Part shown: positions 1 through 46,018 of the stretch, piece after piece
How positions within the stretch are numbered: position 1 is the first letter of the stretch
How the letters are laid out: each line of letters begins with the position of its first letter
Origin: Ascidiella aspersa
Lineage: Eukaryota
Direction of reading: 5' to 3'
Assembly (NCBI GenBank): GCA_963924565.1
Contig: OZ004607.1
Location: forward strand, 39,308,001 to 39,372,000
Length of the DNA: 64,000 nucleotides
The notes under the pieces: model-generated
Database searches by the model: none
What the model was told of the DNA's origin: nothing
The model's input: only the letters and a program-made list of their open reading frames with translations
Made by a program: the position numbers and the translations under genes

Positions 1-484
1 ATAGGAATAACACACCACCGCCAAAACATACAATTTAAACCCATTTAAATTGCACTAGGGTCGGTCATTGTGCTGTAAATTACATATTGTGCTCCTTGTA
101 TTGTTTTGCTTAGAACGATCTCAGTTTAGATGCTTTAGTATTGAGAAAGTGGCTTTATTAAGGTTAGGCCGCCAAAACTATTTCGAAAATGTTGCAGCAA
201 TGTGGACTAACCACCGCTATTAAACTAAGGGTTTAGCTGAACGTAGAAGGAATATCGAAGCCCATAAAGAAGTAGGTAACATTTTAAACATTTCTTATAT
301 CTCGTCATTTTCAACCTATATATATTTGAAACGTTTAAAATATGTTAGCTAGTTTAGCATGGGCTTTATTATTTTAACCTTCAACTAGTAATAACCTACA
401 GAAACATTTAGATTGTTAGGTACTCTATGCACGGATCTGTAAGTAGCTCGGTCATGAATGGCAAAGTCAAAAAAGTAATGAAAC

Positions 485-526
485 ATTAACTGAAGATAAT
501 ACAAGCTCGTATCGAAACGTCTCAAT
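485..526 (+). ncRNA. Minimal type-I hammerhead ribozyme motif, family A copy 1 (slightly degenerate)
   Basis: AUUAA-CUGAAGA-U-AAUAC-aagcuc-GUAUC-GAAA-CGUC-UCAAU; lies between inverted arms 435-475 and 550-591. Confidence 0.6.
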
Positions 527-596
527 CAAAATGATGTCGATCTACTCGACTTTTTTGACCTTGCAATTCATTATCAAGCCACATTACAGATTGTTT

Positions 597-3500
597 TTAT
601 TCAAAAACCAACCCGTGGTAAGCCTTTATGTCGTCAGAATCGAACGAGAAGAATCCGTGACGTCGTCGATTTGGGTTCAGTAATCCGGGACTGGCGGTTT
701 GTAGAGGGCTGAAGGTGGGTGAAAATGTGGGGCTGGGTACGTAGTTCACGTATGTGGGGGTGGTGGGGAGGGAGCCGGGGTAGAGGGGCAGGGGGAACCG
801 GAACCCTGAGGGGGTCACTGGGGCAACGTGGGGCGCGCCGGTGTGGGGGCTAGGGCTGCCTGAAAAAAGAAATTAGGATCGTTAGTTTTATTTTACTATA
901 TTTTTTTACTATACTATGTTTCACGGTTATTTTTATTGTTTTTATTGTTTGTTTGTATATATACAGTATACACTGATGTTGCCATTAACTCGACGAAATA
1001 CATATTTTATAATGTAAGTTTTAAAACTAAAACACACGTAAACATATAAAATAAACAACTGTTTTGTTTTTCATTTTCCAAATCTATTCACTTTTAAAAA
1101 GGCCAATTAAATATTTACAAAGGTGGGAAAAATTAACTTGGGTTTAAAATAAAATAAAAAAATCAGTTTTTTTATTTCTATAGTATTTTATATCTTAAAA
1201 ATTTGAAAAATAAATTACAAGCATCCCACACTTTAAAATATTTTTTCCAAAATCATGTAAGATTTGTTTAAAATGTTTAAATAGCTACCTACCTCTTTAC
1301 GGGGTTTGAAAAAAAAAATATTATTAAAACTTAAAAAAAATTAACTAAAACTTTAAACCTTAAAACACAAATACAAATTGCAAACATTCCCTTATTTTTA
1401 CAATATTCTACAAAACAAGTGTAATTATGACTTTTTCACACTAACTTACTTGATACTTGCGATAGCAGTGCAGCGACACCTGGTGTCATGACCCTGTGTC
1501 TGTAATGGCCAGGAATTACCGAGGGGTGGCACCGGTACCTGACGGCGCCGACCAGGGGGCTAATGGGCGCCCCGGCCAACAACCGACCCACCTCATCACC
1601 CTCAGATGTGGCCAAAGATTCCTCACTACCATCGCTCACAGAACCACGAAGCAAACGAGTTGCAGCTGAGAAATAAATAAATACATATTATTTCAATTTC
1701 TAAAAAAAAAAATGTGACTCTCGAGTGGATTTAAACTGGAAACCAAGCTAGGTATGGTGATTTTTCGGCAAATTTGCACGAATTGTGCAAATCAGTCTTA
1801 AAATTTCTAAATAAATTACTTTGTTTTCCACATTTGTATTTCATTTAATTGAAACATTTCTTATCTAAAGAAACGAAACTAACCGAGCATTTACATTTCT
1901 CGTATGTGTCAGCACAACATTACGAACAAAACTTACATTGTTTCACAAAATATGTGGTTTATTAAAAAGTTTGTTATATTAAGAAATTGAAAAAAGCGAA
2001 AAATTTACATTTTCGGGCAAATCAGTTTCAACTTTAGCAAAAACGCCCAAAACTCGCTTTAATGCTTCATTAAAATGCGCTGTTGTTCTTCAATTGGGTT
2101 TGGGAGAAATTGACCGCGGGTGAAATCATATTTCCTGCCATTCACTCGCTAGGAACACTTGGCAGAGAGATTGGAGCGCTTTTATCCGGGCAGAGTTATT
2201 TGAAGAATGCGGAAATGACAGAGCGGGGTCGAAGGCTCTGTGGCGTAACAATGGGGCAAGTGTGACGAAACAAATACCCGAGTTTTTGTGAGAAATATAG
2301 AAGATTGAAGCACAAGGCGTTTATTGTATTTACCGGATTGTTGTGAACATTAAAGCGTGGTTCTAAACTTGAATAGTTTCACGGAAAGTCTAAATACATT
2401 TAGCTACTGCTTCTAACAAAAAAACACATGCAATTTAAATATCTCCCAAGTGTTAAACAAAATCAATCAAAAAAACAAGTTTAAAGAGATTTAGGTGTAA
2501 CTATGGGTGCAAAACTTTGTCCAGGCGTCGTTATGAGATTTTTTAAGCCTTCCTAAACCAAATATGGCTCTGAGAGATATCAGGCAACCGTAAATAACAA
2601 ATAAAATCAATCGAAAGTGCGTAGTAACTTAACATTACGTTAAATAGCCATTGTTGGTTAAACCATAAAAGTGGTCATTTTAAATTGAAACGATTCGTGC
2701 GAAACAATGCCACGTTGAACCACGCTAGAAACCAGAAGTGAAAATGAGGTCATATCAGTACTACGTGACGTCATAACTTATGGGGGGTTTCGTTACGTCA
2801 TAGTACTCACCCATCCGATGTGGGGCGACCGCTACAGGGGACTGTAGGGGTGATTCCTGGGGGGTACCAAATACGTCATCCTTGTTATCACCTCGTAAGC
2901 TTCCATCTGAAAGTGAAAGTGTGAAGGAATTTATCGATCGGATATTACTTGTATACGAGGAAAAGGGGTGGACAATATTTTTAATGTTTTGTACAAGAGG
3001 GGGTAAAAATATTATGCTGTACTTTGTCAAATCTGACTGGTTTATTGACGAACGATTTACTTCTATTTTCTTTTTTTTACCAAAACAACATTACACGTTA
3101 TTTTCATGTTATTTTCCGATAAGCTTCTTACGATATTTTGGCGTTCGGAAATGATTAAAAGACGTCATTGCTCAAACAAGCAAAATTATTCAAATAAAAT
3201 AAACAAAGGTAATGATTTTAGATTATTATGCCAACATTTTGCGTTAGCATTATTTTCCAACTTCGCCACAACCAACTTACTTTGTCTTGTAGCAGCTGCA
3301 GCAGATAGTAGCAGGGACTGTTGGTGCTGGGCCCGTCTGGTCAGGTCGGCCATGTGGGCCGTCATCGCCGCCGCCGCGCTCCCGGGGGTCATCTGTACAC
3401 CAACCGTTGTCGTTATTAAGTTGACCAAAAAAATTGGAAAAAAATTGACAAAGCGTTTTTTCATCGAAAAACAAGAATTCTAATTTTTTTGGGCGAAAAT

Positions 3501-6500
3501 TATTAAACAATTGCACTATAATAATCTCAGTAATTTTTTTATATTTAGAAAGTTAATGGGGGCAAAGTCAAATAAGTGAAAGTTTGGTGGCAAAATTACA
3601 ACATTATACACAACCGTGCCTTATTCAGTAAAAGTAAAAATAAAATAAGTTTGGGTTCTTGAATAAAAGCTGGGTTAAAGACTAAAGACAAACCGTCTGT
3701 CAACAGGGATGGGCACATCAGCAAAAATGAGGCTTTTAAGAGTATTTTAACAAACAAATAATTCATTATATCTTCTAATTAAGTAGGAAAAGAAATATTA
3801 GTACAGCGTTTCATCAACGAAAAAAGCTCGTTTTGTAGAGAGATAGCCAGGCAGTAGTGTATGTGTGAGAAGATCAAGCGTGTGTTCGAAGTAGTTATAT
3901 GGTAATAAAACCAAGATTAAAGCAATCGCAATGTTGACAGCAGATAACGTTCATTTAAAGAGTGTTTATTTAAGCAGCAATTTGACGACGGCCAGTAAAA
4001 CTGCCTCCCACCTCCTATGCGGTTAATTGTCTTAAAACGAAAGACCTGCGGATTGGCCCCTACTACGTCGGTCAGCGGTCTGCGGTGTTGAATATTGCGC
4101 TGCGCTCACAATCGAACAATGCACAATAGCCAGTGGTATTTGGGAAACCGACTATAGAATGGAAGAAATGCCAAACCGGCGGGAAGCAATTGTAAATAGA
4201 TTTTCCTGTGGTCTGTGTTAGGCCTGACGACAAAAGGGGGATGCGGAGAAGATAGCTGGATTTATATTACACGACGGTGTGCGTTGCTTAAAGCGCATTT
4301 AAAACGCACGCTTCATATTTTTACTTGAATTGTTTCAAGTTTTTAATGCAGTTTTATTACCAGATTTAGAAAAACGCTAGGCTACACCCAATCCAAGCAT
4401 TATAGGCGTAAATTCCTAATTATAAACTATTTTATTGGAATTTTATTTTATGATGCTTGTAAATGCGAGTTTTTCATCACATGTTTCTAGCAATGGTATG
4501 AATAACTTAATGAAGACACTGTAGGCAAAAATGCAATTTTTATAAATAAAAATCTACACTTTTTACCTTATTTTTACTTTTCTATTAAAAATCGTAAAAA
4601 AGGGGTGGCATATCAAAATGTTTTGGAACCTACATTAGTAACAACTTTATGCGACGATTTGCCATTGGTGACTTACGTGGTGGTTTGGTGGGTGTGGCAG
4701 GGGCGGGGTCAGTCCGCTTGGAGCCGAAAGTTCTCGAAAGTTGAACTGGTAAGTGAAACGCTTGCCCTTGGTCTTGTAAAGAATACGCTTGTTGTAGTAA
4801 TACCTGGAAAAAAACAATTTATCAGGAATATTTATTATATGGGCCGAAAATTCATTTTCCATGAGCTTATAATTGTTATTGCGTTTTCTGAAAACTGATA
4901 ACTTAAATGGCATTTTTACTTTATTTATTTCTACACATATCTACATAATGGAAACCCTAAACACATCAACCGAATTTGTCTATCAAGGCAGCCTAGAAAA
5001 CCACCAGCCTGAAGAGAGGTTTGAACGCATGGCTGGATCAAATTTGCTGTACATTATGTTTTGTGTATACATGTGCTACGTATCTTTTAAATGTGCACTA
5101 TTAAGATTTAATCCGTTCACTAAATATACCAGCAACTTATAAAGACTTCACCAAGTGCCTTCTGAAAAGGCTTTTGCAAAATAAATATTGATACTTTCAC
5201 AATTTGATATCCTAACTAAAATGAAAAAAGTATTTCTGGTGCATAAGCAAAACATACAATATTTAAAAACTATTTTGGTGCTTATGTTAAGAATTGAATT
5301 ACAGAACCATTAATTGTGTAAGAAAATAGAAAAAATGCAAGTATTGTTGCTTCTTTGCAAATTTGTGTTCTTAAAATTAAGAAAGCATTGTTTAATTTAA
5401 TAACTGTTAAGTGTGCATTAAACAGTTAGCACATTAGCCCATTAATACAATGGGCTACAAATTAATTAATGGCCCAACCAGAAGTTGTGACATCTAGGTG
5501 AAATTCCAAAGCTGGGCACACCTAGCTAAACCAACAGAGACCTGGCGTTATCTGCCTGATGTGAGCAGCCATTCTCCATACAAGGCAAGCACAAAAAGCA
5601 CAGCTAAAATAGAATGTGGCTGACTGGGAGAAGAGCTACCATTATACCACACCAAGCCATGTTTGCTGAATAGGATTTTGTCAAATATTTGGCTTAAAAT
5701 TTTTTGTTGTACTTAGTTCTGACATGCAAGGATCAATATGCCACAAAAAAACTATTGATTTACAGTCTCTATTAACTTGTAGTAGCCATATATGCTGACT
5801 AGGCATGTTTTAGGTTTGAATAGCAACGATTTTCAACAATACTTTACTGTGGATTTTTCTCATTGTTACCCAAAAAAGTCAACATTTGTTTAATTAATTT
5901 GACTAATATAGTATCATGGGCATCTTTTGCAAGGTTCCAAATCATGTATTCAAATAAATTTGGTTAATAAACTGGGGCACTTCATAAAAATAAAAACAAC
6001 AAAATTCTACTTGCTATTAAACATTGTTTGAAAAGTTGTAAATCTGCATACAGTGCTTCTTAACCCATCGTTTGAAACTATAATTTTCGCGCTATTTGGT
6101 GTTTTTGGTTTGTTAATTGTATTTGTTGGTTAGATTTGAGTCTAAAACAAGATTTTTTCAAGATTTAAGAAGATTGCCGAAGTACAATAGGCAATTTAAA
6201 GACAAGACTCTTAAATTTAGCATGTTTTACCATGTTTAATTCACTTTAATCCTACAAGAAATTTAATTGGGTCATCAAAGCTTTACTGCTATAATACTTT
6301 CGCTTGGTAGTTGGGTGGACGTGAAATAGGTTGAAGAACACTGGTTCAATTAATGAGCTATTTACCTCAAAGCTCTGCTGAGTTTGTCGTAGTTCATGTG
6401 TGGTTTGCATTTTCTCATTCCCCAAAGCTTGGCAACTTCGTCGGGGTCTTTGATCACAAACTCACCATATTCACCCTGCCACGCAATGATGTCCTGCAAA

Positions 6501-7845
6501 CATGGAAATTAAACACTGGGTTAAGATATTAATACAACCTGTAAAGCTCTTGTACAGGGGTAGGCTGTTATTTTCGAGCTGGGTCACTTTAGAATAAAAA
6601 TTCTTTTTAAAAAAGGGTCAATCTTAGGTTCTGAAGTGCATATTATATGAAGAGTGGATCTTTAAGGCAAAAAAGATAGAGGGATAGTATTACATGAAAT
6701 TTTTTTTATGAAAATAAGCCACAAGTTGCATCAAATTGCTTGACAGGCAATAGTTTTCCAGGGTCGAAAAAAACAATTGGTAATGTGGCCGTCAACAAAC
6801 TGCCTTCAAATAATACTAGAGAACAATAATTGAATACTAAAGGGTTCGATTACATATATACAAACAGATAAAAAAGCAACTTTTTAGTAGGCTTAGAAAA
6901 ATTACACTGAAAGCACAGAAAAAAATTTCACAGCATATTGAGTATCTACTATAAAAGACAGTCTGTTTATCACAATATCCTAGAATTGGGCATGAAATAG
7001 GCACCTTAAAAGTAGAGATAGACCGATATATCGGTTTACCGATTATATCGGCCGATATTTGGCTTCTACCAATATATCGGTATCAGTAAATGTAGGCCGA
7101 TATTTTGGCCGATATTTTAGTACAAAAATATGATATAATTTTTCCTGTACAACAAACTGAAAAATTGTAAAAAATCGGGTATCGGTATCGGTCCAAAAAA
7201 TGAATATCGGTCGATCTCTACTTAAAAGTGAAAAATATACCAATGTAAGCGCCATTATAAACATTAGTGTGAAACTAGTTTACCTGGTATTGCTCATCTT
7301 GCAAGAGTTCCAAGATAAAATGCCACAACTGAACTTGTCGACTACCCGGAGCAGATTCGGACTTGAACGCCCATTCCGGGATAGTTGTCTGGCTGTTCCC
7401 TAAAACATGAAGAAAAACAAAAAATGTCACATGAGTGCAGTATAAAGTGTCACGAAAGTGTGAATTTTTTTTAAAATCGCTTTTTTTTTATTTTAGTTTG
7501 GTAATTTTTTTCACTCTAACCATACAAGCCTCTTTTTATATTAAAATCAACCAATTATAATTAAAAAAAGCTATATGAACCAATTACATAACAGTATTTT
7601 CTATTCAAAAAGCCAATATTCCTAAATGTTACTTTTATAAACCTTCTAGGATAGTTCCTTAAGTTGAAGGGATTACTATTATGAACAAATTTTCCTAATT
7701 TATTTATCAGGCCAATATCCATCACATGTTTTACATATAATTAATAATGACTTTTAAAGTCAACAGTACCTGCTCTCCATACGTTGGAACTTGGTGGTGG
7801 ACGTTGTTTTATTGGATCCACGTACGCACAATGCATCTTCAGCAT
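597..7845 (-). CDS. ERF: ERF/ETV3-subfamily ETS-domain transcriptional repressor (multi-exon, 3' end probably outside window)
   Basis: Phase-consistent GT-AG exons: 7845-7770 ([11 protein letters not shown]..., in-frame TAA just upstream), 7399-7284 ([32 protein letters not shown]), 6493-6366 ([43 protein letters not shown]), 4803-4677 ([22 protein letters not shown]), 3392-3281, 2906-2811, 1665-1450 ([11 protein letters not shown]), 859-~613 ([15 protein letters not shown]). The ETS domain and the RGSVSD and FSF motifs match vertebrate ERF/ETV3. The last exon either splices at a GTTGGT donor after 613 or reads on to TAA at 597. Confidence 0.93.
7013..7220. mobile_element. hAT-type MITE with ATCGG-rich internal repeats
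   Basis: TIR TAGAGATAGACCGATAT / ATATCGGTCGATCTCTA; perfect 8-bp TSD CTTAAAAG (7005-7012, 7221-7228). Confidence 0.9.
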
Positions 7846-8072
7846 CGGAACTTAAGTTGCTGCGACGATGAAGTGAGTGAAACCGTTGCAGTCAGAACAT
7901 AATCCAAATGTTTAATTTAGTATAAAAATAGCCTTATATTAAAAGCCAGATGAAGAGCTGAAAATCAAAGGAGAATGGTAAAATAAAATTCCTGTAAAAG
8001 TTTTAGTAATATCTAGCTCAAATAAATATAATTGAAAGCGAATATTTTAAAAGTAATAACCAAAAAAAATTC

Positions 8073-8175
8073 GAGCATAAGGGTAGGAGGTTGTAGTAAG
8101 AATATCAAAGGTTATACAGAAGTAAGTAGCATTTGGTTTCAAAAAACTTTATTCATGTTCAACATTTCAACAAAA
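8073..8175 (-). repeat. Family B repeat, degenerate
   Basis: GAGCATAA..GGAGGTTGTAGTAAGAATATCAAAG..ATACAGAAGTAAGTAGCATTT..CTTTATTCATGTTCAACAT. Further partial copies at ~228-345 and ~25655-25685. Confidence 0.5.
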
Positions 8176-9639
8176 ACACTTTATGTATCTAAAATCCTTG
8201 TTAGTTAAAGCATAGCAACTTCAAAATTGCTATCAAGGTTTGTGTACAATGTCAACCTGTTGCAGAAACCTGTAGCATAACAGGAACAGCTCACCAAAGC
8301 AGCTCATGCTTCTCCACAAGTGTATTGTTCTTGCGTCAAATTACTTCCTAAGTTTTAAGTATTCCTCCCCACACATAATCATCCCTATCCGCTTTAACAT
8401 CCGAACAAGCTCCTTGCAACAACAATGCACCGCTAGAACACCTTACCTTTGTTATCTAAACAGTTCACACATTTTACCACAAGCTTTTACTAGAGCAGAA
8501 CAATGTTTATCTTATTTTTTTATAATATCTAATTAAATGAATTACACTTGTAAGACATTCCAGATATTCCAACTCTTAACAGCTTGTCAAAACAAGGATA
8601 TTTAGATCCTTATTTTTAAAGAAACAACACTTTATATTATTATATAGCGAAAATTCCATAAAATTACTAAAACTAACAAGATGCCTGTTCTGCTAATATT
8701 ATACTGGTGAACATTTTTGGGTAAAATTACACTAACACATAAATTAATTATACACCAACAAGTTAGTTAATGATCATTTATATACCAATACAAAAATACA
8801 TAAGTCATCATTTTGTACATCATATGACCTACAAAATTCACTCAGTTTCATTTATTTATCAATACTAAAAAATAACATTCATCATTTTAAAACCAGCTCC
8901 TTTAACAAAAGAAACAACATTTATCTAAACGTTAAAGAGTTCTAGTTACGAACAGCCAGCCTTTCAAGCAACGTCAATTCTAATCCAAGTTTCAGGCTTC
9001 CAGGTCAAATCGTTTCGCACCTCTGTTGGTTTGTCCTTGGAATAATGCCTCGAAAGCCAATGAGACAGACAAGCGAGCAAGAGTAGCAGACCTGTTACAG
9101 ACTAACAATCGGGTTTTCCCTGAACATCCAGGAAATTTGCGGCCACTTCGCACCAGGACTGTCGCAACAACCATTTGCAATCAACGAACCAAGCAACGCT
9201 CAAGCCCGACGCACAAACTTCCTACCAGTGGCATTTTTTTAAGTTTTCGTTCATTTTTTAAACTTATTAATGGTAAATCCCGGCAAAAGTTGTTAAACAC
9301 ATGTTTTTAATCGTTTTATGTTCCTTTGTTAAACAATGATCGGCCTTTTACAAACCGGAATAGTTTAAATAATAAATTGAAACAAAACGTTAATCTTTTA
9401 GGCCACACTTCTTATTGACCATTTAACCGTTTTATTTGTATTAAAACGGTCAGAAAGCTGTAGTTGCTAAACGCATTTTTTCATCCTATTTAATTTACCA
9501 ACACAAGGCTACTGTTTTGGCCACATTTTTTATCAACCTGCCAACAGCTTTCCTCACTATTTAAAAATTTATACGTTTCACACTAAACTTCGCTACTCTA
9601 GCGCTACAAAAATACCACAAAAACAGTTTAAAACGAATA

Positions 9640-10200
9640 TAGTGCCGACTAAGTTAGAGCGTCCTCGTAAACCAGCTTTTCTCTCACGCTTGGCGAGATT
9701 TCTGGCGAGTGAAATCAGCCAAGTATCACACAAGGCGGTCGGTCGGTCGCAGCTACTTCGCCATTTGGCGTGACTAGCTGGGCTCAACACCCGACACCAC
9801 TTAATGAACGCTTCTCTTTGTGGCCAGATTTGAGTCAGAGGCGCGCGCGAGAAATAGAACAAACGAAATCGCGACGATTCCATTCAACGGCGCAGCGGGT
9901 GCTGGTAATTTCCTTACAGAAACTCCAGGCCACTGCTGCCGGGGTTAGTGTACAAACAAGACCTGTTTCCACGCTTTGTGGCCACTAGGCATCAAACACT
10001 AGCGTCAAACCTGGTTTCCTTACAACGAATGAAGCGCTAACCTTATTTCAAATGGCGCGACCTCGATATCCGATAAGCTGTTGCTGCCGACAATGGACGT
10101 ATCCCGCTAAGCGATATTCTTTCACCCAAGATAACTTGATTAAACCACTTGGCTTGGCGAAATAGAGGGCGTGATATTAGTGCACTATGCCACTGCACAA
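9640..10200 (-). promoter_or_regulatory. Candidate ERF promoter / CpG-rich island
   Basis: GC/CpG-rich block ~2 kb upstream of the ATG with ATGGCG (YY1-like) and TTGGCG/GCGCGCG (E2F-like) motifs; transcription start not demonstrable from sequence. Confidence 0.3.
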
Positions 10201-11005
10201 CTGTCTTTTAGAAAAATTGATTTTTTTTGGTTAACTTAGCTTAAAGCATTTGCTATATACACTTACATACAACGGGGATGTATTAATATAAAATACTGGA
10301 TGGACTTCGGAAAAGATTAATATCAACTTAACTGCAATGTTGACTTGTTTAAGGTTCTATACAACTAAATTAAAAAAACAAGTTTAAATTAAACGCATTA
10401 TTAATCTACAATTTCTTAATAAAATTCAAAGTTTTATGCACTTAAAAATATATACTACTGACAGCTGACAACTAAAAATGTTTCTCAAAAACTTAACTTA
10501 GTTTAAACGGAGCCCAACTCAACAAAACACTTTTACCAGAACTTTTCTAAAACAACGTCACAATGCACTTTCTACGACCTCAAAACAACCAAACAAAGTA
10601 CCACTGAACAATCTAAACAACCTATTTCTATTCTGTAAAGCGCAAAACATCTCAAAAAGTATGACCAAAAAATCTACTCCTATTCTGTAAAGCGCAGCCA
10701 GAGGCATCCGGTTTTTATTTCTTTCCACGCGTGAGTTCGAGTGATCGCATTACAGAGGGTTGCCACAGTTGGAAGTAGCTTCCCACAGTTTAAACTGGGG
10801 TGGGGACCTAAGGTGTGTAAATACGCGATATTGGCGCGTGACGACAGATCAATGCGAGGTCCTATCTTCGCCAAACAGCCACGAGACGCCAGATTTACCA
10901 ACGCGGACCCGGCGACGCGCGGTCTCTGCCTGTTACGTCACAAAAGAACTCCCGGTAACGTCGAGTTTGGTCAAAAGGAATACTGAAGGTTATCTTTGGA
11001 GGATA

Positions 11006-11232
11006 ACCGCTCGAGGTTGCAGTTAAAAGCAGAAGGAATGTCAAAACAGAAGTAGGAAGCATTTTGAACGTTTCGAATAGTTGTTCACTCATTTTTAATA
11101 TCAGATCTGTGTTCACAAAATACTATCTACATCTCTATGGGCTTTGATATTCATTCTACGGCCAACTACAACCTCCAGCAATTAACTTAAGATTTATTCG
11201 AAACGCTCATAAAACGCAAACTTCTTCTGTAT
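11006..11232. mobile_element. Family B repeat, inverted + tandem units
   Basis: Same ~90-bp unit (CAGAAGTAGG..TTGAACGTTTCGAATA; TGGGCTTTGATATTC..CTACAACCTCCAGC) in both orientations. Confidence 0.6.
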
Positions 11233-12227
11233 GGGGTAGAATATTAAAGGTCAAACTTAACATAGCCTTGTGTGACATCACAAGTGGTCCGTGACATCAC
11301 AAAGGCGTACGGAAGTGTGTTTTGGTTTGAATGGCATAGCGGCGTGTTGGCTTGGCTTCCTGTGCTACAGACAAGGAGGGTTAGAGTTGACTTATAAGGT
11401 TAAGTTTTGCGCACGAGACAAACCCACGTTAGTATAGAGTGGCTCGACCTTGCTTGACGCAACTCATACCCGTCTGAACATTTCTATTGGGTCTTGTATC
11501 GGAAAACCATCAGGAAATCCGAATTACGGGATTCTGAGTTCGATTTTGGTACTTTGATTTCGGATTTTTTAAGGTTTTGATTGGTTAACGGTAACATATT
11601 TTAGGACCCGCAACCCTTTTATATAAATATGTAAAAATACTTTAGTGGCTAAAACAAATTTGAGTTTAATATTTTAAGAGTTTGGGAAACCGTTTCAAAA
11701 CACCCTTCAAAAACAGTACATTATTACGTTTAACATTTAAAATGAAAAGCGAGTTTTCTTGTAAAGTTTTACTTAAAAATGGCACTCGACTTTTCCGTTT
11801 ATTACAAAATAGAAATCTACTCGCTCTACGGATTCAGGACTTTTCAAAAAAATCTGTAAAATCAGTATTCGGCACGTTTTGATTCCAATTGTGCAAACAC
11901 GCCGCAAGTATAATCTCCTTTCCTCGTAAAACAATAAAATTCAAGTCAGTCACGATTAGGAAACGGGGGGCAATAAATCAGCAACAGATTTCGTTTCGAC
12001 AATTTCGTGGAAATATCGACCTTTTAGCTTTAAATTAACGTCATTAAAACATAAAGCGTTAATATTGCAATATCCATCTCACTGCCAACTAGTATATGAA
12101 TCCTAATATATTTACTGCGGAAACATGCAGAAATCTAACATGAAGAATGAATTTAAAGATCATACAGATGTACACCTTACGTGTGAAGGTTTCAAATCGT
12201 TCTTTGGTCATTTTAAATTTTAGATTT

Positions 12228-12380
12228 ATGTTAACAAAATGCTACATACGTCTATATGGGCTTTAATATTCTTACTACGTCTAACTACAACCTCGATCCA
12301 TTGTCAACAGATTTATTTAAAACGTTTACAAAATGCTACCTACTTTTGAATTTACTTTGCTATCTATTCTACGTCTAACG
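12228..12380 (+). repeat. Family B repeat, tandem units
   Basis: CAAAATGCTAC...TGGGCTTTAATATTCTTACTACGTCTAACTACAACCTC followed by a second partial unit. Confidence 0.55.
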
Positions 12381-12569
12381 ACATACTTTATTCAATATAC
12401 TTCAAAATCTTAAATTAATTTCCAGCAAAATACAACCGACTTTTACAGGCGAACTAACGCTTTACGTCGACCAGCAATTTCTTAAGCACAAAAGCTGCGT
12501 TTTTCCCTGCTTCAGTTACAGCGGCGAAAAAGCAGGCCGAAGGTTTTTTAAGCTTCAGGTTCAACAAAA

Positions 12570-12930
12570 GGGCCTTGTACAAAAATAGCCTTGTAAAAAA
12601 ACCCTTGTTAAAACGGGCAATAAATGTGCCTTGTAGACGGCAAAATAATGAGGCTTTTTTATACAGGCAAATAAATAGGCCTTATTAGAAGGGCTAATAA
12701 ACAGGCTTTTTTAAACAGGCAAAATAATTAGGCTTTTTTAAAAGAGAAAAATAAGTAGTCTTGTTTAAACGGGCAAATAAATAATATGCTTTTTTACAGC
12801 CCCAAATAAGCTTTTTAAACGGGCAAAAATATAGGCTTTGCAAGACGACCAACAAAATGTAGCGTGTTGTACAGCCAGATAAAAAGGCTTTTTTAACGGG
12901 CAAATAGGCTATGTTATACGACCAGGCCTG
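12570..12930. repeat. Degenerate ~21-bp minisatellite (AAACGGGCAAAAATAGGCTTTTT-like)
   Basis: Many imperfect tandem copies; possibly subterminal repeats of an old DNA transposon. Confidence 0.65.
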
Positions 12931-13152
12931 CAGCATCCGACACCAGCCTTTAGATGTGGTGATCTACTTGAGCGCACGTGTTGTGTGGCCTTATGTTGTG
13001 AGAGTTGTGGCTTTCTGTGGAGCCAGTTTGCTCGCCGCTGCAATCACGTTGACGCCAGAAGTAATGTGGACGTGAAACCACCATGGCACGACTCAAACTT
13101 AGTTTAAACTTCAGAATAAAACAGCATATCTTTGTGGCAAAACTAAAATAAA

Positions 13153-13275
13153 TATGAATATCGAAGCCCATACAGAAGTGAGTAGCATTTTGTGAATGTT
13201 TCGAATAAATCTTTATTCATTTTCAACATTGATGAAAAACCTGCTCAACTTCTCTATTAGCTTTGATTTTCATTA
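13153..13275 (-). repeat. Family B repeat with UUGAAAA hammerhead-like core
   Basis: Minus strand UG-UUGAAAA-U-GAAUAA-agau-UUAUUC-GAAA-CAUU (13228-13195); CG>CA change in stem III. Confidence 0.55.
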
Positions 13276-15056
13276 ATCTGTATTTCACAACTATTATCTA
13301 ATAAAATTAAATGTGTTTATTCGCAATCATACATTTAAAAGAGCCGTCATTCAAATAAGACTTGTGCAGGTTGCCGCACATTTTTATAAAATAAATTTAA
13401 AGCCATTCACGGGTTTTTCAAAAACCTAAAATTGGATTACTTGTTTTAAATACAATTCGAAATAAAACATTAAAAATTCAAAACTGGAAAACAAAACAGT
13501 ACAAAATCTACTTTCTAAAGACATAACTTAGCTGCATATAAAATAAATTTAAAGACTCTTTTTTTTCGGAAAACATATGGTTTTTAAAAGACATTTTCAA
13601 TACATACAAAACAATTCAAAGAATAAAAAACTTTGTGTTAACCCTGATTGAAAATCAAACACGCAGTTAACAGCAATTTATAAAAAGACCACAAGCGTCT
13701 AAGCAACAGCGAATCCTGTTATTCGAAAAGGGAAGCTTTCGGGTGCCGAGTCACAATGGAACATGACTCAGCCCAACACAAAAGCCTGGAAGTGCAAACA
13801 GAGAGGTCAGACAGGGAAGTTACTTGGGGTTTGGTCAACAAGCGAAAATATGCCGCGCTGGCCAATCTGGGGTCGCAACCAACAATATAAAGGACTTCCG
13901 TGATAAAATCCCATGACTGAGCGGCACCAATAGGTCAGGTTTCAAGGACAATGAGGAAATCACTGTTTTTTTTCGATATGGCGATTATATGCCGTCTTAT
14001 TATGTAGAAAATAAAGGCGTTTTTTAAATATATAACAATAATTTATTCCATTTTTGTAAACAAATATATCAGAAAACAATTATTCGAAAAAGAGCTAAAA
14101 AAATCGGATATTTTACACATTTATTTTGCATTTTTTTCCGTTTTACGACATCTTAAATAGGCGCGGGATTTTGTGCATTTTAACAAATCGGCCAGTTTGC
14201 CAACATTTAGTTAAGCAGCACCTAACTTCTTTTAGACTTCAAGTTCGAGTATTGTTTCGAATATTTAGCCAGTTTTGAACAAAATGTTTAGCTAAATGTA
14301 AGAAATCTCGGTCATCACTAAGTTAAGAGCGCAACTTTTGCTGTTTTTGATCAAAAAAGTTACAAAAAATAATTTCACGAACTTTGCAACAAAACTAAAC
14401 TCAAGCTGAAAACAATCTTTTTGTTCTAGCTCTTGTTGTTTTAACATGACTTTGCCTAAGTATTCCAAATATCACAAGCTGTAACCGTCTGCCTTGAACA
14501 TTTCTGCGAAACCACTTGCTCTTGCTATTTAGGGATGTTTTGTAAAACGCTTTTTCAACCGTAAAGTTAGAACGTGCCTTAACCCCGCTATATTAAGCAA
14601 AGACCAAAAACATAAAACGCAACTTTCCCGCTTTGAAACCTTTCCAGCGAACAAAGTCCACGTCACAGTGGGTGTTGTTGCGTCAGAATGCGGACTGTGA
14701 CAAAATAATGGCGGGAAGCAGCAGCAGTTAGTAGATGGAGCAAGTGTAAATAGAGGTTGCCAACAAATTGTGATTGCCTCTCGTCAAATAAGACTCGTTA
14801 AGTTGCCAGTTAAGAGGCACCGCTGTGTTACGCCGCGACAGATCAAACAAACACGAAGGTGGCCAGAAGAGGCCGCTTTTAACGGGCCAAATTAAACAAG
14901 GCCGGCTCCCTTTTTGAATTGACCGCAAAAACACGTTGGAAAAGATTTTAAGCGGTTATTTGAATTATACGGATGTGAAAATTGGATTAGATTTATGAAT
15001 GAAGCTATTGACTACGAATTTAGTTTGATCACTTTGTCTTTTAAAGTAAAAACTAT

Positions 15057-15094
15057 TTCACTGAAGATGATACAAGTGGGTATCGAAATTTGAA
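15057..15094 (+). ncRNA. Hammerhead motif, family A copy 2 (degenerate at cleavage triplet)
   Basis: UUCA-CUGAAGA-U-GAUAC-aagugg-GUAUC-GAAA-UU-UGAA: perfect stem II and co-varied stem I (UUCA/UGAA); the CG of stem III is missing. Confidence 0.5.
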
Positions 15095-17627
15095 TTTATA
15101 CATTTGTAGTGGATATTTACTAAAAAAACTTTCTAAACATTGTGATAACATTATCTAAAGACGATTCAGTAAATAAAGGCAACGATGGCTTCTCCTAACT
15201 AACATATATTTGTTAGGGTATTTTTAAAATAAATATTGATAATTTAAATAAAAGTTTTAATAAAATTTATGTAAAAAATACGCTCATTTCTTTTTGAACT
15301 TTTTGTCTGCCGGATTATTTACTTGTAAAACGGTTCCCAAGTACATTTAGGACTAAAATAGTAATCGTTGGCTTTTCCCGATTGATCTCCCAAACTGGGT
15401 CAAGGGCTGACGGCGCCAGTTTCACCAATTTCGGGCCAAAAGGGCCAAGACGCCCTGGATTATCCTTTGTGGTCTGTCCAAGTTGTTTTACGAAAACTTT
15501 CTCCGACCACTTACAACATCGGATGAGGGCGCGGAGACAGTACTTGAGTGGATGTGAGGTTGTTTGTTTTTCCGACCAACATCAAAGAAATGAGGTTTTG
15601 TAGAACTCAAGCGACACAAATAAATCGGAGGCTGTGTGTCGCCAAATTCACTAGAAGTTTTCAAATGCGTCGCGATGCCCTGGTAGCTTCCAAATGGCGT
15701 AGCACAATAATTCAGCTTCATATTTACCGCAAAACAGTGATATTTCTATCGCTGGCTGCGCCGCAATTTCAACGAACTTTTGTAGGGCGTAGGCGTAATG
15801 GTAAAACAAGTTCATTAACCTCTGTATTAGGCCATGGGTGGGCACTGAGCTTTCTCGACACATATTTACGGCTTTTTTGGCTTAAGGGTCAACAAACTTT
15901 TTCATAAAGAGCCAGATACATACAAGACTGACGATCGAGGGTCTGATATTATAAAAGTTTGTTTTGAACTTTGTTACTTGACTACAATAAGTGGTTAACA
16001 AAGGACACAAAAACAATCTACGAAACTGTATTAAGTTTTGCTTATGGTTACTCAAGTCGTATTATCGTTAACCCAATTCCACGGCAACATATCAACAATG
16101 TTTGTCAAGACCAAGTCTTATCTTTTAACAAAAAATATAGTATATATTTGTTGCTGCGTGTTCTCAAGGTCTGTGGTTCGACTCTCGTCAAGCGCTAAAA
16201 CACCATTTTAAAGAAACTCAAAAAACAGTGGTGCCGACCCGTTATGTTAATTTCTTGCGTTTTGCATCTCAATTTATTCATAATAATTTTAATAAGTTGT
16301 TTCACATCGAAAGCCATCGCAGTATTTCACAAGGTTGGCGTGTGGTAAGCCCACATCGACGTTCTTATCAAAAAACACCCGAAAAGTCAACACGAGTCGA
16401 CACACACACAGATTGTGGGATTAAAGCGACCGCTAAAAACATGCTTCTGCCGACAAAAAACGTTGGAAAAAGAGATTTTTTAGTAGAATAGGAAATTAGA
16501 TTTAAAAACAAATTTATGAACAAGCTATTTACAAATCATATTATATTAAGAATTAGAATTAACGACATTTGCTCTAGTTCGTCGAATTAGTCAAGTAAAA
16601 TTTTGTAATAAAAACAATACACGGATTATTATCATAGAAATTTAATTAATATTATTAAAGCCATAGCACCTAATTGAAACGACATTTATTTTTTTAAACC
16701 TTTTGAACAGAATTATGAAATACAACACACGGGTTTCATTGCAAACTCAGTAACAACCCAAAAGCCATCAGCTTTCTGCAAAGCTGACACATTTTTTTCA
16801 AACTTGACAATTATCCAGTTGTTAATATCTATACACATGTTCGCAGCGTTCTTCGACCACGATACAGAAGCCAAATCAATCAATAAAACCGAAATAATAT
16901 TCTTATTTCGACATTTTTTTACTACTTCGACAACAATCCGGTCCGGTCTGTCTACAATCTACTTTGAGTTGAAATACGACCATAGCACAGAACCGCAGGC
17001 TTGGAATGATGGCATAAGCACGACCAATCCACATTCCGCGGTAACCGATGCGCAAACATGCCACGTGGCGGCAAGGTCGAGTCAAGGTCACGCATGACCT
17101 TGTAGCTAGAAGCGGAAGCCTAATGACCTGGGCCATAAAATAATCGACGGATTCTTGCGAATCGCGTGTTCCTGCTACGAGCATCTTTATCAGGCAACTT
17201 TCGTGTCACGACATTGGAGTGAACATCTGTGGTCGTTTCAAAGCTCAATTAACTTGCACAAGAAGCGTAGGTCTTCTGCGTTCAACTAACTTGCGGTAAG
17301 TGCATTTTATGAGTTCACAGATCACGCTTAGCGATTAAAAAAAAACGCAGCAAAATCTATGTAAAAATGCACCTAAGGTTAGTCTGTGTGTCAATCAATA
17401 TGCAGTAAGTGAATTTTGGGCAAACACAAAACTGACATTGGGTTAAATTGCAGAGAATCTATGCAAAATAAAACACAAAACTCAACACATTTTTTTAAAA
17501 ACAATCGAGCTGTTCACAAATTATAATAGAATTCTCGGCTTTCTCTTTAATTTGTATGATCGGAGAAAAGCATCAAACCAAAAAAAGGATAATCTACTAA
17601 TTCCATAGAAACTTCAAAAAGTAATAA

Positions 17628-17836
17628 TGCACCAAAAGTCAAAAAGGATTGATTAAGACGTTTCGTTCGATACGTACTTGTATAATGTTTAGTTAATGTG
17701 ACTGATATATTAACTGATGATGATACAAGTGCAAATCGAAACGTCTTTATTAAGATGATGCCGATGTACACCCGTTTTTTTGGCTTTAAAATTCATTATT
17801 AAGCTACATTACAGATCTGCGCATAGTGCACCTAAG
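17628..17836. mobile_element. Family A hammerhead-bearing repeat, inverted dimer (Penelope-like pLTR remnant)
   Basis: + strand AUUAA-CUGAUGA-U-GAU...AUC-GAAACGUC at 17709-17750 and a degenerate inverted copy at 17653-17697 (...GAAACGUC-UUAAU). The downstream tail matches 416-591. Confidence 0.6.
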
Positions 17837-22782: not shown

Positions 22783-22920
22783 AAAATCTTTAGATAATGG
22801 CTGGAGGTTGTAGTTCAACGTAGAATTAATACCAAAGCCCATACTGAAGTAGGTGTCATTTTGAACGTTTCGAACAAATCTTAAGATAATGGCTGGAGGT
22901 TGTAGTAAGACGTAGAATGC
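22783..22920 (-). repeat. Family B repeat, tandem units
   Basis: AGATAATGGCTGGAGGTTGTAGT occurs twice ~92 bp apart. Confidence 0.6.
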
Positions 22921-24139: not shown

Positions 24140-24310
24140 AAGCCCATACATAAGTAAAGGTAGCATTTTAAACGTTTCGAATAACTCTTTATTGATTTTC
24201 AGAATCGAAAATGATGTTGAAAATTGAATAAAATTATTCGAAACCTTCAACATGCTTGCTACTTCTGTACGGGCTTTAATACTCTTACTACGATTTACAA
24301 CGTTCAACCA
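24140..24310. mobile_element. Family B repeat, inverted pair
   Basis: AAGCCCATAC...AACGTTTCGAATAACTCTTTATT followed by the inverted copy GTTGAAAATTGAATAAAATTATTCGAAACC...TACTTCTGTACGGGCTTT. Confidence 0.65.
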
Positions 24311-24689
24311 TCACGCTCAAAAATCGCATGTTTATTGTTAGAGTTGCAAACAAAAATAGAAATCCCGTTTTGCCTGCAATGTTACTCTCTTAAAATTGTC
24401 AAAATACCCCTTAGGGGTGGAAACTACTGCTCTAAAATCTACAAGAGTCCCGTTTAGTCGAAAGTCGTGCGCATATTTCCCACTTTGGCTGCATAAATAC
24501 ACCCGAGCGATATAATTAGAGTCCAATTTGACGCAAGTGAGAGTTGGCATACCTCGGCCGCACCAACACTTGTCATTTAACCACCAACCTGCAATTTAAA
24601 CAGACCTCGTTTGCTGAAAAAGCCAACATAGCAAAGTGCCCAGGAATCGACGTTTAACCTTACTGTCGTGTTATTATAACGCTGTAAAT

Positions 24690-25077: not shown

Positions 25078-28000
25078 TTGTAAATTAACGCCATAACTAT
25101 ATATGTTTGTGACCCGACGACGTCTCAAAAGTTGGATTGTGTTGAAGTGTGCATCAGCCAAAATAAAATCGCTTGGGGATAAGTTTTGTACAGAAAGTAA
25201 CCACAGATATCCCTAATGCGACTAAACCGCGTTAATTAAGCACTCAGGTCATTCAAGCGACGATTGATTTCATAACACGAAGATAGATTGAAAGTGGCTC
25301 CCCTTGGGAAATAAATTCGATGCGACATGAATCAGCGTGAGCGCAAAGCGACAAATCACATTAGACCACGTGGCTGCCTGCTCTCCCCTCCCCCTTAACC
25401 CCTTATTAACTTTGCAACGTTAACATTAAGAATTAAATTTTCCATCACCATTTCAGGCGTTTCTTCGTTTTAATTTTAAACCGCTAATTGCTTGGCAGTG
25501 GAAACGATTAAAGGCGATAATCTGTGCGAGTTTTAGATTCTAAAAGGAGCAATTTAAACAAATTATGCGTAAAACGAAGCTATTACCTTAAAGGCGTTTG
25601 GAGATACAGCTATACATGCTTCAAACAGTAATACAACTAAGGATCATAATTGTTAGAGGTGTTAGTTAGACGTAGTAAGAATATGACCACCCGAAAGTGA
25701 ATAAAAATATAATCGAAACGATCAAAACGTTTATATGATCTTTTATATTCCAGCTACGATTAACAATTTCAGGCAGAAATGGATAATTTGGCAAAATTAA
25801 TCACAAATAGGAACAAATCAACAATCAGGTATATTCAAGTGGTTATTTTCGTTCCAATAGGATTATAAAGTTAAACCAATAGCTGGACTAATTAAAAACT
25901 AACATTTCTTTGGTTTTTACGTATTCTTAAATATAATTTTTTTAAGTGGCTATTTTGATTCCAATAAGCATTAAAGGTTAAGACTCAAATAAAAAAAAAT
26001 GCGTCTTAGAACTGAAAAAAAACGCAATCGTCAATCACAAACGCGCAATTTCCCGTAACTCGGGTCACGATTTTACAGTTTGTGACAAAAAACGCGGTAA
26101 TGGTCGGATCTTAGGGGAATGAAGTACGTTGGAAGGCGCGCGTTTAAGGGCACGAAATGATTAAATGAACTGACAATCATTATCCAGAGCAATAAAACAA
26201 TTAAAGAGGTCATTTGAGGGCGACCTTAACTGTCAGACGAATCTCGACGGTTTCGTGTCCATCATTAACCTGATAAATGACCATCCACTGTTTCACCTTC
26301 GCGCTTGCAGATCGCTTTCTACGCACGGAGCATCACGAAATTTCACGAAGTCACGATTGACTTTTGACGGAAAGGACTCGAACTCACGAACGAATGTGCA
26401 TCACCTGGTCATCGACACGATTATGCAAATTAAGCCGCACAAGAGCACCGTGGTTCACCCCTGGACACACGGACACACCGACACACGGATATATACGAAC
26501 AAGGCAAACGCAAGACAGAAAAGCCGTGATTGAAGTATTTTTTTAAAAGTTTTTTTTTAGGTTTCACCTCTTTTTTTAGAAAGCTTTACTAAAAGTTTTG
26601 GTTGATTTTTTAGCGACTTCTATTTAGATAGTTTTATCTATTTTTTAATCGGAAAAAGCTTGAAAAGCCTGTGATTTCAATTAAATCAAAACGCCAAAAT
26701 GTATTTTTCAACATTTTATTTCAATATTTTTAGGCTTTACCTATTTTAGGCTGCTTTAGGCTACTTAAAAATTGTGGATTATAATTATTTTTTTTAAATA
26801 ATTTTTTACTTTTATATTTTCAAGCTTCGAGTCGTTATTCGTGAACTTAACTGACTGTTCGTTTTGATATTTTAAACGATATTTTTGTTTAACATAATTT
26901 TTTTTTCCAAATAACAATCGTAAAAATAACACAAAAAATTTTTGTAAGGCAAGGCTTTAGTTTCTAACAAAAATTATTTTTTAAAGCTAAGAGGGGTGAA
27001 ATTAAATCAGAAAAATCAGAAATGTCGATAACCTTTTTTGAAGGCTGCAACTTTGCGTTACATTATTCGACAAATTCGCGACCGAAACCACCCAAAGACA
27101 ATTTGTCAAATTCCCTTCGTGTCTTGCCGTCTGCCAAATTATGGACAATAGTGAAAAAAACACCCAGAAAATAGATTCTCTTTAGCGTAGATTTGACAAT
27201 ATCTTACATCGCTAACCTTAAGTTCGTGTGCCAAGCTCGCATTTTGCGTCTGCCTTGAGCGTTTCTCCGGCTTTTCCAATGTACTACACAAACACCCGGG
27301 CGACCATTAACATGACTGCGATGCAATCTCGCAGTAATAACAACACTACAGGCACGACATGTTTGGGCAGCGCCTTCTCAAACTCTTGCAGCTCTTTCAC
27401 AAAAATCGCGCCACACTCTCTACAACACAAATGTAATGTATAAGAGTCGTTTTGACAATAATGTGATGTTACCCTTACTATACGACAAGGCAATTAGGTA
27501 AATACAATAATATTGTCAGGTATGACTAACAGAAAGTGCGAATCATGTTTTTTAAGTTTGCTTGCACGCCTACGAGTAATACGAATTTGTTTTTTTCCTA
27601 AAATACGAAAAGTTCCGCAAAGAGGAACACCAAAACACGGTAAAGAAATCAAAATACCGCACATTCGAGCAAAAAAACGCCTGTTACTATTGTAAGTTTC
27701 AAATTAAAACGTGCGTTTGTTTGTTTTTTTTGCATAAATTCATCTAATCATACCTGAATTACCAACCAATTACTTAAAAGTTTAATTCCATTTTTAATAA
27801 ACTTTACAGACTGCGTACCACCTAATTGCTAAATTGTTGCTGCGTAACAAATAGTTTAAAAAATACATTTACTTAAATTTACTTAACTTAAAAAAAATCT
27901 CAAAAAACAAATAAAAAAAAACTTGTTTTCAGCGCTATCCGCTGATTCTAGAAATAAGGTCGATTTACAGTTTTCGTATTAATTTTTCAAATTAATCTAA

Positions 28001-32174: not shown

Positions 32175-32378
32175 TTTTGGAGCATAATGGTTGGAGGTTG
32201 TAGTCAGACGTAATAAGAATATCAAAGCCCATACAGAAGTAGGTGTCGTTTTGAACGTTTCGAATAACTCTTTATTCATATGAAAATGAATAAATGTTGA
32301 AAATGAATAAAGAGTTATTCGAAACGTTCAAAATGATACCTACTTCTGTATGGGCTTTGATATTCTTATTACGTCTGA
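32175..32378. mobile_element. Family B repeat: ~75-bp inverted arms with a U3-A8 hammerhead-like motif, flanked by a 12-bp direct repeat
   Basis: Arms 32204-32279 and 32303-32378 are near-perfect inverted repeats. UUGAAAA-U-GAAUAA-agag-UUAUUC-GAAA-CGUU at 32297-32328. ATACGCGATATT occurs at 32163-32174 and 32379-32390. Confidence 0.7.
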
Positions 32379-32992
32379 ATACGCGATATTATTAACAAAA
32401 AATCACGATTACATATCAATTGACGTCATTTTCAACCTTAAACAGAAAAATTGATGAAATTGATACATTCAATGGTATGTTTTACATGAAATTAGGTTAA
32501 AATTTGTCTTTGTATTAAAAAGTTTAGTTACGTAGAGTTGTTTACGTAATTTCAAAGTAGAAATCGTTTTGTTGGATCGTAAATCATTGCTGCACTTCCC
32601 ATATCAATTTGGTATCGGATCGGCACCGATACCAGCCGAGTATCGGACGAGGAACGATACTAACACTTGGTACCCGGTATCGGCTCCAATCCGACATTAT
32701 CGCGCATCCATAAAAACAATTTTTTTGCCATCTCAACCAGATAAAGTCAAAAAAGCCATACATAGTACATACTGTACGCCAGCAAAGCAGACGAGTTCAC
32801 AATAAATTTTTAACAGTAGCAATTTATTGCGTTCTAGGTTTCTCTCCTACAATAATATTCAATGTAAATTATTTCCAGCATAAAAAACTCAGTAAATATG
32901 CAAATCTATTCCTTTAAACAATTCAACTATAATAAAATAGCTCCGATAGATTTGCTAACATGTAACAAGGAGTAAAAAACACGCATATTTAA

Positions 32993-33121
32993 ATACAGTG
33001 TTCCAACGGCCACTTACACACGATGCCATGTGCCCCTGGGACAGTGTTTAACCGAGCGATCGGAGTTTGCGACTATCCCTACAACGTACCAGGTTGTGGC
33101 GGAACCGACCCCAGACTCTGT
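32993..33121 (+). pseudogene. Orphan chitin-binding type-2 (CBM14/peritrophin-A) domain fragment
   Basis: In-frame IQCSNGHLHTMPCAPGTVFNRAIGVCDYPYNVPGCGGTDPRLC is the C-terminal 4 Cys of a CBM14 domain plus the likely first Cys of a following repeat. There is an in-frame TAA immediately upstream and a possible acceptor AG at 32997-32998. No partner exons were recognised. Confidence 0.7.
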
Positions 33122-37000: not shown

Positions 37001-37787
37001 AATGCAGCTTAATACAAGTAAGTGCATCGGTGGATTTATAAAATAAATTTTTATTCTAAAAGTTGAATTGAAATAATTAAAACTAAACCAATATAAGTTA
37101 AACATTTGACACTCGTCTAACCTCCTCTACCACATTTTTTGTACATAACATGTATGGGTAACCATTAGCACTCAATATAACATTAGCACGCAAATAATCA
37201 ACAGTACCATTATTCCATTACAAAAACATTTTAATGTATACTTTAGTAATATCGACTAAAATAACTTTCCACAAAGCTAGTTCTACAGAATGTACTTTTC
37301 AAGCGTCATCTTAATTGACATATTTCCATTATTACTGTACAACTAGGTTTAAAATAACTAGTTCTCTGAATATTTCAATTAAAAATAAAAACACATAAAC
37401 CATCGGGATAAAACAAAACATGTCTGATTTACATAGGATTTATCTACAAGCAAGAGTGCATGTTAGGGCACTTCACGCCCAAATCTTGGGTGTGCAGAAC
37501 CAGATTTTGAGTTGTGCATGCGTGCAATCAAGCTTTTATGCACAACTTAGGTTGGATATCCTACCGCAATTTAGATTTTTTCTAAATTTAAGTGCACAAT
37601 ATAGCAAACCAGGTGTGCACAAAAAATTTATTTAGAAAAAATATTGGGTGTGCCCTGTTACAGAATGCAGATTGGTCTACAAGCAAATACATCTTCCCAC
37701 AATATTTTTAATTAAAGTCAAAAGATAATACAAACAATGGAGTTTCAATAGCAAGAGTACTGGTAGTCAAGTAATATAATTAAACCA

Positions 37788-38060
37788 GGCGCTCTTTCAC
37801 TATTGTACGTAAAAATTTAAAAAAAAAAAACTTTCTTCAAATGCCGCATACCACAACACATATTGTTTGGGTTAGGGTGCGGGTTAGCGTTTGGTTGAGG
37901 GTGGGTCAAGTTAATATTAATAATAAACATAATATTACTTGACCCACCCTCACCCAAACGCTAACCCGCGCCCTAACCCAAACAATATGCGTTGTGGTAA
38001 GCGGTATTATTATTATTTTTTTTTTGCATAACTTTTCACGTACAATAGTGAAAGAGCGCC
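37788..38060. mobile_element. Palindromic GGCGCT-terminated MITE (Merlin-like by GG ends and 8-bp TSD)
   Basis: TIR GGCGCTCTTTCACTATTGTACGT; almost the whole element is a hairpin with GGGTTAG-like repeats; TSD TTAAACCA/TTAAACCT. Confidence 0.85.
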
Positions 38061-45300: not shown

Positions 45301-45916
45301 CGGTATTGGCAGCCATTTTTTCTTGGGCAATTAAAACCTTTTCAGAGCCGTTAATAATGAAATAACCACCAGGATCAAGTGGACATTCATTTAACTCTGT
45401 CAAATCTCTGTCCGTGAGTCCACTTAGCAAGCAGTAGGTTGAGCGAAGCATGATCGGAATTTTACCGATAAAAGTTTTCTGGTGTTGTGTTTCAATCGGG
45501 TCGCTATTGGCCTTGACAATTGTCTTTGTTATGTCAACGTACAGTGGTGCAGAGTATGTTAAATTCCTCAGTCGTGCTTCGTTGGGCATCATCGGACTCG
45601 GAGCTCCATCTTTTTCCCAATGAGTGGGCTTCGACAAATAGATCTGCTCGAATTTAATGAGGTATTTTGTCGGAGCGCTAACCTCAGTGCTTGTATGCTG
45701 TGCTTCTGCTTGAAGTTCAATGATCGGAGCGTCTTCCACGATCCTCTGTACTGACATTTGGATGAACTCGTCAAATGAGTCGAGTTGTTGCCGTACAAGA
45801 CCTTTTTCGTCGAAGTACGAGCTGATAACGATCCAACACGCCTCCTGCCATAAATCGGGCGAAATCTCATTTTCTTCACCCTGAGTATCCATTTCTTCTT
45901 CGTCATCATACATCAT
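42392..45916 (-). CDS. POLR2B: DNA-directed RNA polymerase II subunit RPB2, single-exon CDS, 1174 aa
   Basis: Full-length uninterrupted ORF with RPB2 motifs ([39 protein letters not shown]-terminal CxxC...CxxC zinc site, [20 protein letters not shown]). Confidence 0.99.
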
Positions 45917-46018
45917 TTTTGCCTTTACAATGATACTATGACTGAAAAAATCTGTAAGGAGTACATTTCAAAAAATTAATCAATGCCTAAATACAAATAT
46001 TAGCTTTTAACAACAGTT

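Follow-up and report, generated by a model that had tools for sequence, protein, structure and literature searches.

Minimal hammerhead ribozymes (min-HHRs) of metazoan Penelope-like elements (PLEs) have been described by Cervera and De la Pena in 2014 (PMC4209133). The family A repeats studied here resemble them in the core, the single base between positions 9 and 10.1, the G10.1-C11.1 pair, the palindromic stem III, the short stem I, and the occurrence mostly as solo copies with some opposite-strand pairs. Stem II has 5 bp here compared with 7–8 bp in the Schistosoma min-HHR, and the U3-A8 core variant given in the same report corresponds to the core of a sister family, family D, in the present genome. 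The solo motifs were called probably truncated PLEs, and cleavage and circles were proposed to supply the template. Unlike what this proposal implies, the ends of the short copies (stubs) analyzed here avoid the cleavage site; a mapping of solo-motif ends was not found in the accessible part of that report.

The in vitro activity of PAc, the Poseidon element of Anolis carolinensis, has been reported by Frangieh et al. in 2024 (PMC11167929). PAc cuts and extends both strands, uses uncleaved RNA, and has two internal reverse-transcription (RT) starts located 111–118 nt after the AUG of stem II. The spacing in family A is similar, with an AUG at the start of stem II, the cut 26 nt downstream, and the end of the tail 114 nt after the AUG (111–118 nt in PAc). 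Unlike PAc, the stem II AUG of family A opens a frame of nine codons, with the main ORF beginning 9 nt past the cut. Genomic 5' ends, a pile-up at a start site, or an extra G were not found in the accessible text of the PAc report.

The inverted pseudo-LTR (pLTR) Penelope of Adineta vaga and the general PLE layout (PMC3846280, PMC8557442) share with the present loci the head-to-head pLTRs, a one-sided tail of 30–40 bp, a target-site duplication, a putative TATA box and initiator in the pLTR, and the overlap of the pLTR with the first codons. For this layout, antisense self-priming or endonuclease resolution has been suggested, whereas the data presented here favor two primings on capped sense RNA. 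The non-LTR retrozymes of animals are also hammerhead-bearing, non-coding, and kin to PLE pseudo-LTRs (bioRxiv 10.64898/2026.07.22.740005), but they are tandem, while the stubs here are dispersed, inverted, and variably truncated pieces of a parent element. The element class, the pLTR hammerheads, the solo copies, the inverted pairs, the tail, and the putative TATA box and initiator are therefore already known. What is new is the end signature of the stubs, a mechanistic addition that we have not found in print.

The window, a stretch of 64,000 nt from Ascidiella aspersa, contains two paired loci and one remnant of family A. In copy 1 (416–591), the tail-bearing arm lies inverted on the minus strand at 416–476 and, by sequence comparison, covers approximately the last 60 nt of the element. 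The second arm, on the plus strand at 483–591, starts at the modal 5' stop, an A located 7 nt above CUGA, and does not include the 3' tail. Its minimal hammerhead spans 484–527, with the core at 490–521 and a predicted cut after 521. The target-site duplication AGATTGTT is read directly from the plus-strand sequence at 410–417 on the left, where it possibly extends to ~14 nt with one indel, and at 588–595 on the right. In copy 3 (17628–17836), the short inverted arm on the minus strand (17628–17702) has its 5' end 10 nt above the core and carries a decayed hammerhead, its core broken by three substitutions and a 4-nt insertion. The tail-bearing arm on the plus strand (17707–17836) begins at the modal 5' stop, extends to the distal reverse-transcription start, and includes the ORF start codon at 17755; its minimal hammerhead spans 17708–17751, with the core at 17714–17745 and a predicted cut after 17745. 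Copies 1 and 3 are 78% identical over 114 nt. The remnant, on the plus strand at 15057–15088, consists of 32 nt of the hammerhead region, ending in GAAA, and has neither ACGUC nor the tail.

The original prediction gave all three loci one consensus, CUGAWGA-U-GAUAC-loop-GUAUC-GAAACGUC. It is present at 490–521 and 17714–17745, while 15057 offers only the 32-nt match. A search of the window with CTGANGA-N5-30-GAAACGT also returned only the matches at 490 and 17714, compared with 0.01 expected; an Rfam scan of the 64-kb window returned no hammerhead family match at E<=5. The covariation of stem I claimed at 15057 (UUCA/UGAA) falls away, since the family sequence ends at GAAA there and the following TTTGAA, with ACGUC absent, is flanking DNA. 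Inverted copies of the motif or its tail had been noted at two loci, and both are found: the inverted part of copy 1 is the 3' tail only, leaving one hammerhead at that locus, and the inverted part of copy 3 is a second hammerhead. Their interpretation as ribozyme dimers is not upheld, because the two motifs lie on opposite strands and one transcript would thus hold one sense and one antisense copy. As originally noted, every window copy is mutated; at 490, G10.1 has changed to A and stem I is altered, and at 17714 stem II has lost two pairs and stem I one. The hammerhead copies in the window are probably inactive.

The assignment of the motif to the minimal type-I hammerheads of Penelope pseudo-LTRs is borne out by the core, the extra base after A9, G10.1-C11.1, and the palindromic ACGU. 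Families A to E have in common the core, the extra U, G10.1-C11.1, and ACGU, and differ in their stems. In 11 sequences from these five families, the hammerhead features are invariant, except for the exchange of C3-G8 and U3-A8 (the latter in family D) and the mutations of the window copies. In the same sequences, 8 of the 10 pairs of stems I and II are altered on both sides among the sister families, and 81.8% of the cells are paired, compared with 60.0% after shuffling and 21–37% with slid partners. The number of pairs changed on both sides is by itself within the shuffle range (81/500 shuffles). The fold is supported at the sequence level by compensatory stem changes among the four sister families and A; as the compared sequences are few and related, this covariation supports the fold but gives no probability. 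Within family A (24 ungapped arms of 41), core and stem positions vary alike and without compensation, as would be expected of dead copies. Energy minimisation did not recover the active fold for the monomer or the dimer.

In the 308.6-Mb genome, exact matches number 598 for the hammerhead pattern and 605 for the tail, compared with 0 for the reversed-pattern controls, and a looser core pattern matches 964 arms. A DNA search gave 1646 first-look candidates, 40 of which were scored. The copies had been thought to form a separate non-autonomous family without an ORF. Instead, they derive from a protein-coding Penelope-like element, of which they are pieces truncated to varying degrees at the 5' end. 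When longer copies are walked upstream, a short untranslated region is followed by a frame with GIY-YIG-type motifs and then by RT motifs. A family A RT piece matches RVT_1 in Pfam (E=1.2e-7). Pfam gives no match for the C-terminal 309 aa of family A and does not detect the endonuclease there; the endonuclease is called from its motif and from 42–49% identity to the sister ORFs, and the family D endonuclease scores against GIY-YIG at E=7e-4, below the cut-off. The order of RT followed by a C-terminal GIY-YIG endonuclease was assembled from overlapping, broken copies, which are 50% and 47% identical to the intact ORFs of 848 and 843 aa present in this genome for sister families B and D.

Homologues were found in 170 proteins at E<=1e-30 in a search limited to 759–2165 aa; nearly all are unnamed, and most have ~760–900 aa. 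A motif scan finds DKG and no Zn-finger-like CxxC linker between RT and endonuclease. The Penelope/Poseidon group is described with DKG and without the CxxC linker (PMC8557442), and family A fits this group by its motifs. In each long arm, the final 79 nt correspond to the beginning of the ORF, and the peptide encoded after the cut resembles the N-terminal part of the intact ORFs of families B and D, whose elements have the layout pLTR-ORF-pLTR. Among the family A loci examined, no complete copy and no copy with the 5' pLTR-ORF junction was found, the longest reaching back to approximately codon 187. Judged by sequence, the short repeats are the pseudo-LTR and ORF start of an EN+ Penelope-like element. 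Young Penelope copies whose ORFs of 816–848 aa are intact or nearly so are located at L122:4125-6653, L123, L126, and L121:1226-3769, and the family D units at young loci are arranged in tandem, ~2.67 kb apart and >99.8% identical. A long family A copy contains a 640-aa transposase-like frame (L079:3428-5347).

The anatomy of the insertions was determined for 81 family A loci, obtained from 90 tail-anchored loci among the first 100 of the 605 tail matches by dropping 9 duplicates. In 54/81 loci, a second, inverted arm is linked to the first at their 5' ends; by the criteria used, the other 27 have none. One arm reaches the tail, and in 43 of the 54 pairs the other ends 20–40 nt short of it, so the 3' ends of paired arms fall at two sites ~30 nt apart. 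A target-site duplication of 10–16 nt, mostly 12–13 nt, flanks 44/81 loci (one mismatch allowed, no shuffled background). In family D, the head-to-head layout is found in 42/59 loci, 26 of the 42 with a duplication of 10–17 nt scored in the same way; measured from the core, the 3' ends of the long arms lie at 108–116 nt in 37/42 and those of the short arms at 68–88 nt in 32/42. Arms vary continuously in length, the shortest having 30 nt and the longest extending >1 kb into the ORF, and the head-to-head junctions differ between copies. The arms of a pair stop at independent positions and are therefore not mirror images. Except for one two-arm direct repeat, tandem arrays of the short unit are absent from the 90 tail-anchored loci.

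The 5' ends of the arms pile up just above the hammerhead. In family A, 67 arms extend that far, and 34 of them end no more than 10 nt above CUGA. The commonest stop is an A, 7 nt above the core, and the stops are spread over ~9 nt. Inspection by eye of the first 100 of the 964 arms places ~48 stops 2–10 nt above the core, with ~47 arms running through. The stop rate is 12–15 per 100 over the core itself, 6/100 at the cleavage site, and 5–7 per 100 in each of the remaining 10-nt bins up to 100 nt downstream. The sequence TATAAG begins 30–31 nt above the modal A. A prediction of the stop positions in the sister families was set down before these families were searched, and families D and B agreed with it. 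Of 70 family D arms, 37 have their stop precisely 3 nt above the core, 11 have it at 5 nt, and 5 run through (1458 pattern matches compared with 10 in controls; 60 regions from the first 80 rows, with 5 unrelated-looking and 6 duplicate rows left out). In family B, arms stop 6–13 nt above the core (54 matches; 20 regions from the first 27 rows, minus 3 run-through rows and 1 unlike row). A TATA-like box is found at -35/-33 relative to the core in family D, at -38/-37 in family A, and at -42/-40 in family B; no clear TATA box is seen in family C. Since the distance from stop to core tracks the TATA-like box in each of these three families, the stop goes with the promoter and not with the ribozyme. 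The Penelope of D. virilis has a TATA-less internal promoter (PMC2377424), and this layout may therefore not be general.

Other sources of these 5' ends were considered and rejected. Cleavage at the canonical site would leave an excess of ends there, and the 6/100 observed equals the background. Cleavage in a type III fold at a GUC just upstream of the modal stop fails by inspection, as stem I could not form and stem III would be limited to 2 bp; in family D, the stop is not accompanied by such a triplet. If the ends came from cis- or trans-splicing at the AG that precedes the hammerhead, a common leader would be expected, and none is seen in the junctions inspected.

The stops are frequently accompanied by a non-templated base. 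In family D, a G is found where the element has T in 28 of the 37 arms that stop 3 nt above the core (p=3.5e-10) and in 6/11 arms that stop at 5 nt, one duplicate pair still being among the 11. In two-armed family D loci, G is found at 2/20 premature stops compared with 21/28 at the start site. Family B has G in 8/15 arms. The raw count for family A is 47 G compared with 98 A/T genome-wide (47/145); removal by eye of run-through copies and duplicates gives 39/111 (p=5e-4), and removal also of every G that the inverted arm could supply gives 25/97 (p=0.16), leaving family A with a weak G excess of its own. In some loci (e.g. L204, L223, L254), the extra G is found at the predicted sense start on both arms. 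Both forward arms of the window begin at the modal A (483, 17707), which fits the model of run-off at a start site, and are preceded by A and T, not G. Reverse transcriptases can add C opposite a cap, and a non-templated G is thus the mark expected of a copied cap. A literature search found no report stating either a cap-derived G or twin priming in Penelope elements, with thin coverage of subscription journals, supplements, and figures.

Based on these observations, we propose that the loci are truncated Penelope-like insertions with a pLTR hammerhead, formed when both strands of a staggered cut were primed on capped, uncleaved sense RNA and the cDNAs ran off its 5' end; we give this reading a probability of roughly 0.75. 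The base at which the ends pile up would be the transcription start, lying 30–31 nt below the TATA-like box, and the extra G would be the copied m7G cap. Each nicked target strand would prime one arm, after which the two cDNA ends would be joined. The RT start sites lie in the first ORF codons and therefore occur twice, near the 5' end of the transcript and in the following pseudo-LTR. When the 5' copy is used for priming, a cDNA of ~125 nt that runs off at the cap would result, accounting for the short arms; use of the 3' copy would give the arms that enter the endonuclease and RT regions. The integrated templates are taken to be uncut because the start sites would be lost with a cut in the 3' copy, and ends would accumulate at the cleavage site with a cut in the 5' copy. 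The hammerhead would occupy the extreme 5' end of the mRNA and be reverse-transcribed as a passenger. In an active element, its job is probably a protein-assisted cut that removes a capped leader of ~39 nt (35–39 nt); the main AUG follows the cut by 9 nt in A, 4 nt in D, and 13 nt in B. A role of the hammerhead at the front of the mRNA is likely, and it is the least supported step of the proposal.

Three other explanations bear on the same observations. The pile-up could reflect RT stalling or template switching fixed by the hammerhead fold or a bound protein, with the G as ordinary terminal addition. In each of the three families tested, the stop does adjoin the 5' strand of stem I, and in family A the stop rate rises already over the core and the stops are scattered over several bases. 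Such a stall or switch is nevertheless unlikely, given that the distance to the core varies by family (3, 7, and 6–13 nt) together with the TATA-like box and that G is rare at premature stops. Self-priming on an antisense template, a published model for the rotifer Penelope (PMC3846280), would account for the head-to-head arrangement and for the short fold-back or palindromic bases at some junctions. It would leave the extra G on both arms of one locus unexplained, and the independent stops of the two arms, which form no mirror images, make it decidedly improbable as the source of these stubs.

The reading of the original prediction, in which the stubs are an independent non-autonomous short element, SINE- or retrozyme-like, with a unit of ~125 nt that is transcribed, cut out by the hammerhead, and mobilized again, is largely refuted and has the smallest probability of those considered. 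Hundreds of copies do have similar ends, and retrozymes are reported to derive from PLE pseudo-LTRs (bioRxiv 10.64898/2026.07.22.740005). A retrozyme is expected to have a fixed unit, a tandem arrangement, and ends set by the ribozyme; the arms here are variable and extend continuously into the ORF, the copies are dispersed with hardly any tandem repetition in the 90 tail-anchored loci, the junctions vary by copy, and the ends are off the cleavage site. Most short arms also stop below the TATA-like box and thus have no promoter, which argues against an independent element.

If priming on capped sense RNA is taken as the origin of the family A stubs, a wider generalization can be drawn, toward which we lean with some reservation. 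Solo and head-to-head PLE hammerhead stubs would be cDNAs that were primed from both nicked strands and ran off the 5' end of capped, uncleaved mRNA, and the genome would log the start of each family to the base; the hammerhead would act as a self-decapping switch and not as a template-preparing enzyme. The integration route of PLEs and the job of their hammerhead are open questions in the papers cited here, and the stub ends bear on both. The end statistics give genomic support for priming by both strands on capped sense RNA and count against antisense self-priming and cleaved or circular templates for these insertions. Such priming would explain the abundance of solo minimal hammerheads in animal genomes. 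The young sister families B and D, with their intact ORFs, make the model testable in the published in vitro system.

One raw RNA run with the same species label was mapped to one family A and one family D copy, using ~6% of the run for each. The 969 and 1070 mapped reads continue into unlike sequence in 93–94% of cases, on both strands, with little depth over the ORF, and they mostly represent stubs within other transcripts. No start or cut site is visible in this sample of one run. Loose read ends at the cut position of family D were considered as cleavage products and rejected, as they track a C/T variant.

Sister families are also represented around the family A loci. The window contains approximately ten family D stubs with the U3-A8 core (241–318, 8070–8165, 10994–11235, 12235–12406, 13151–13232, 22794–22914, 24140–24322, 25635–25727, 32176–32382, and 54707–54774), which outnumber those of family A. 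The stub at 32176–32382 is head-to-head, 96% like the intact element, and has the anatomy of the family A stubs. An old head-to-head remnant at 16611–16768 resembles family C with 71–76% identity. Elsewhere in the genome, a family A stub abuts a family C arm at L135, downstream of position 3056, and further family A loci have B or D stubs within 1.5 kb.

The window also contains other features. A palindromic element of 275 nt at 37787–38061, for which Rfam gives only below-threshold miRNA matches, is probably a MITE. The minus strand at 42392–45967 has an uninterrupted, intron-free frame of 1191 aa that resembles the RNA polymerase II subunit RPB2. A short exon-like frame at 32993–33100 has a cysteine pattern resembling that of a chitin-binding domain.
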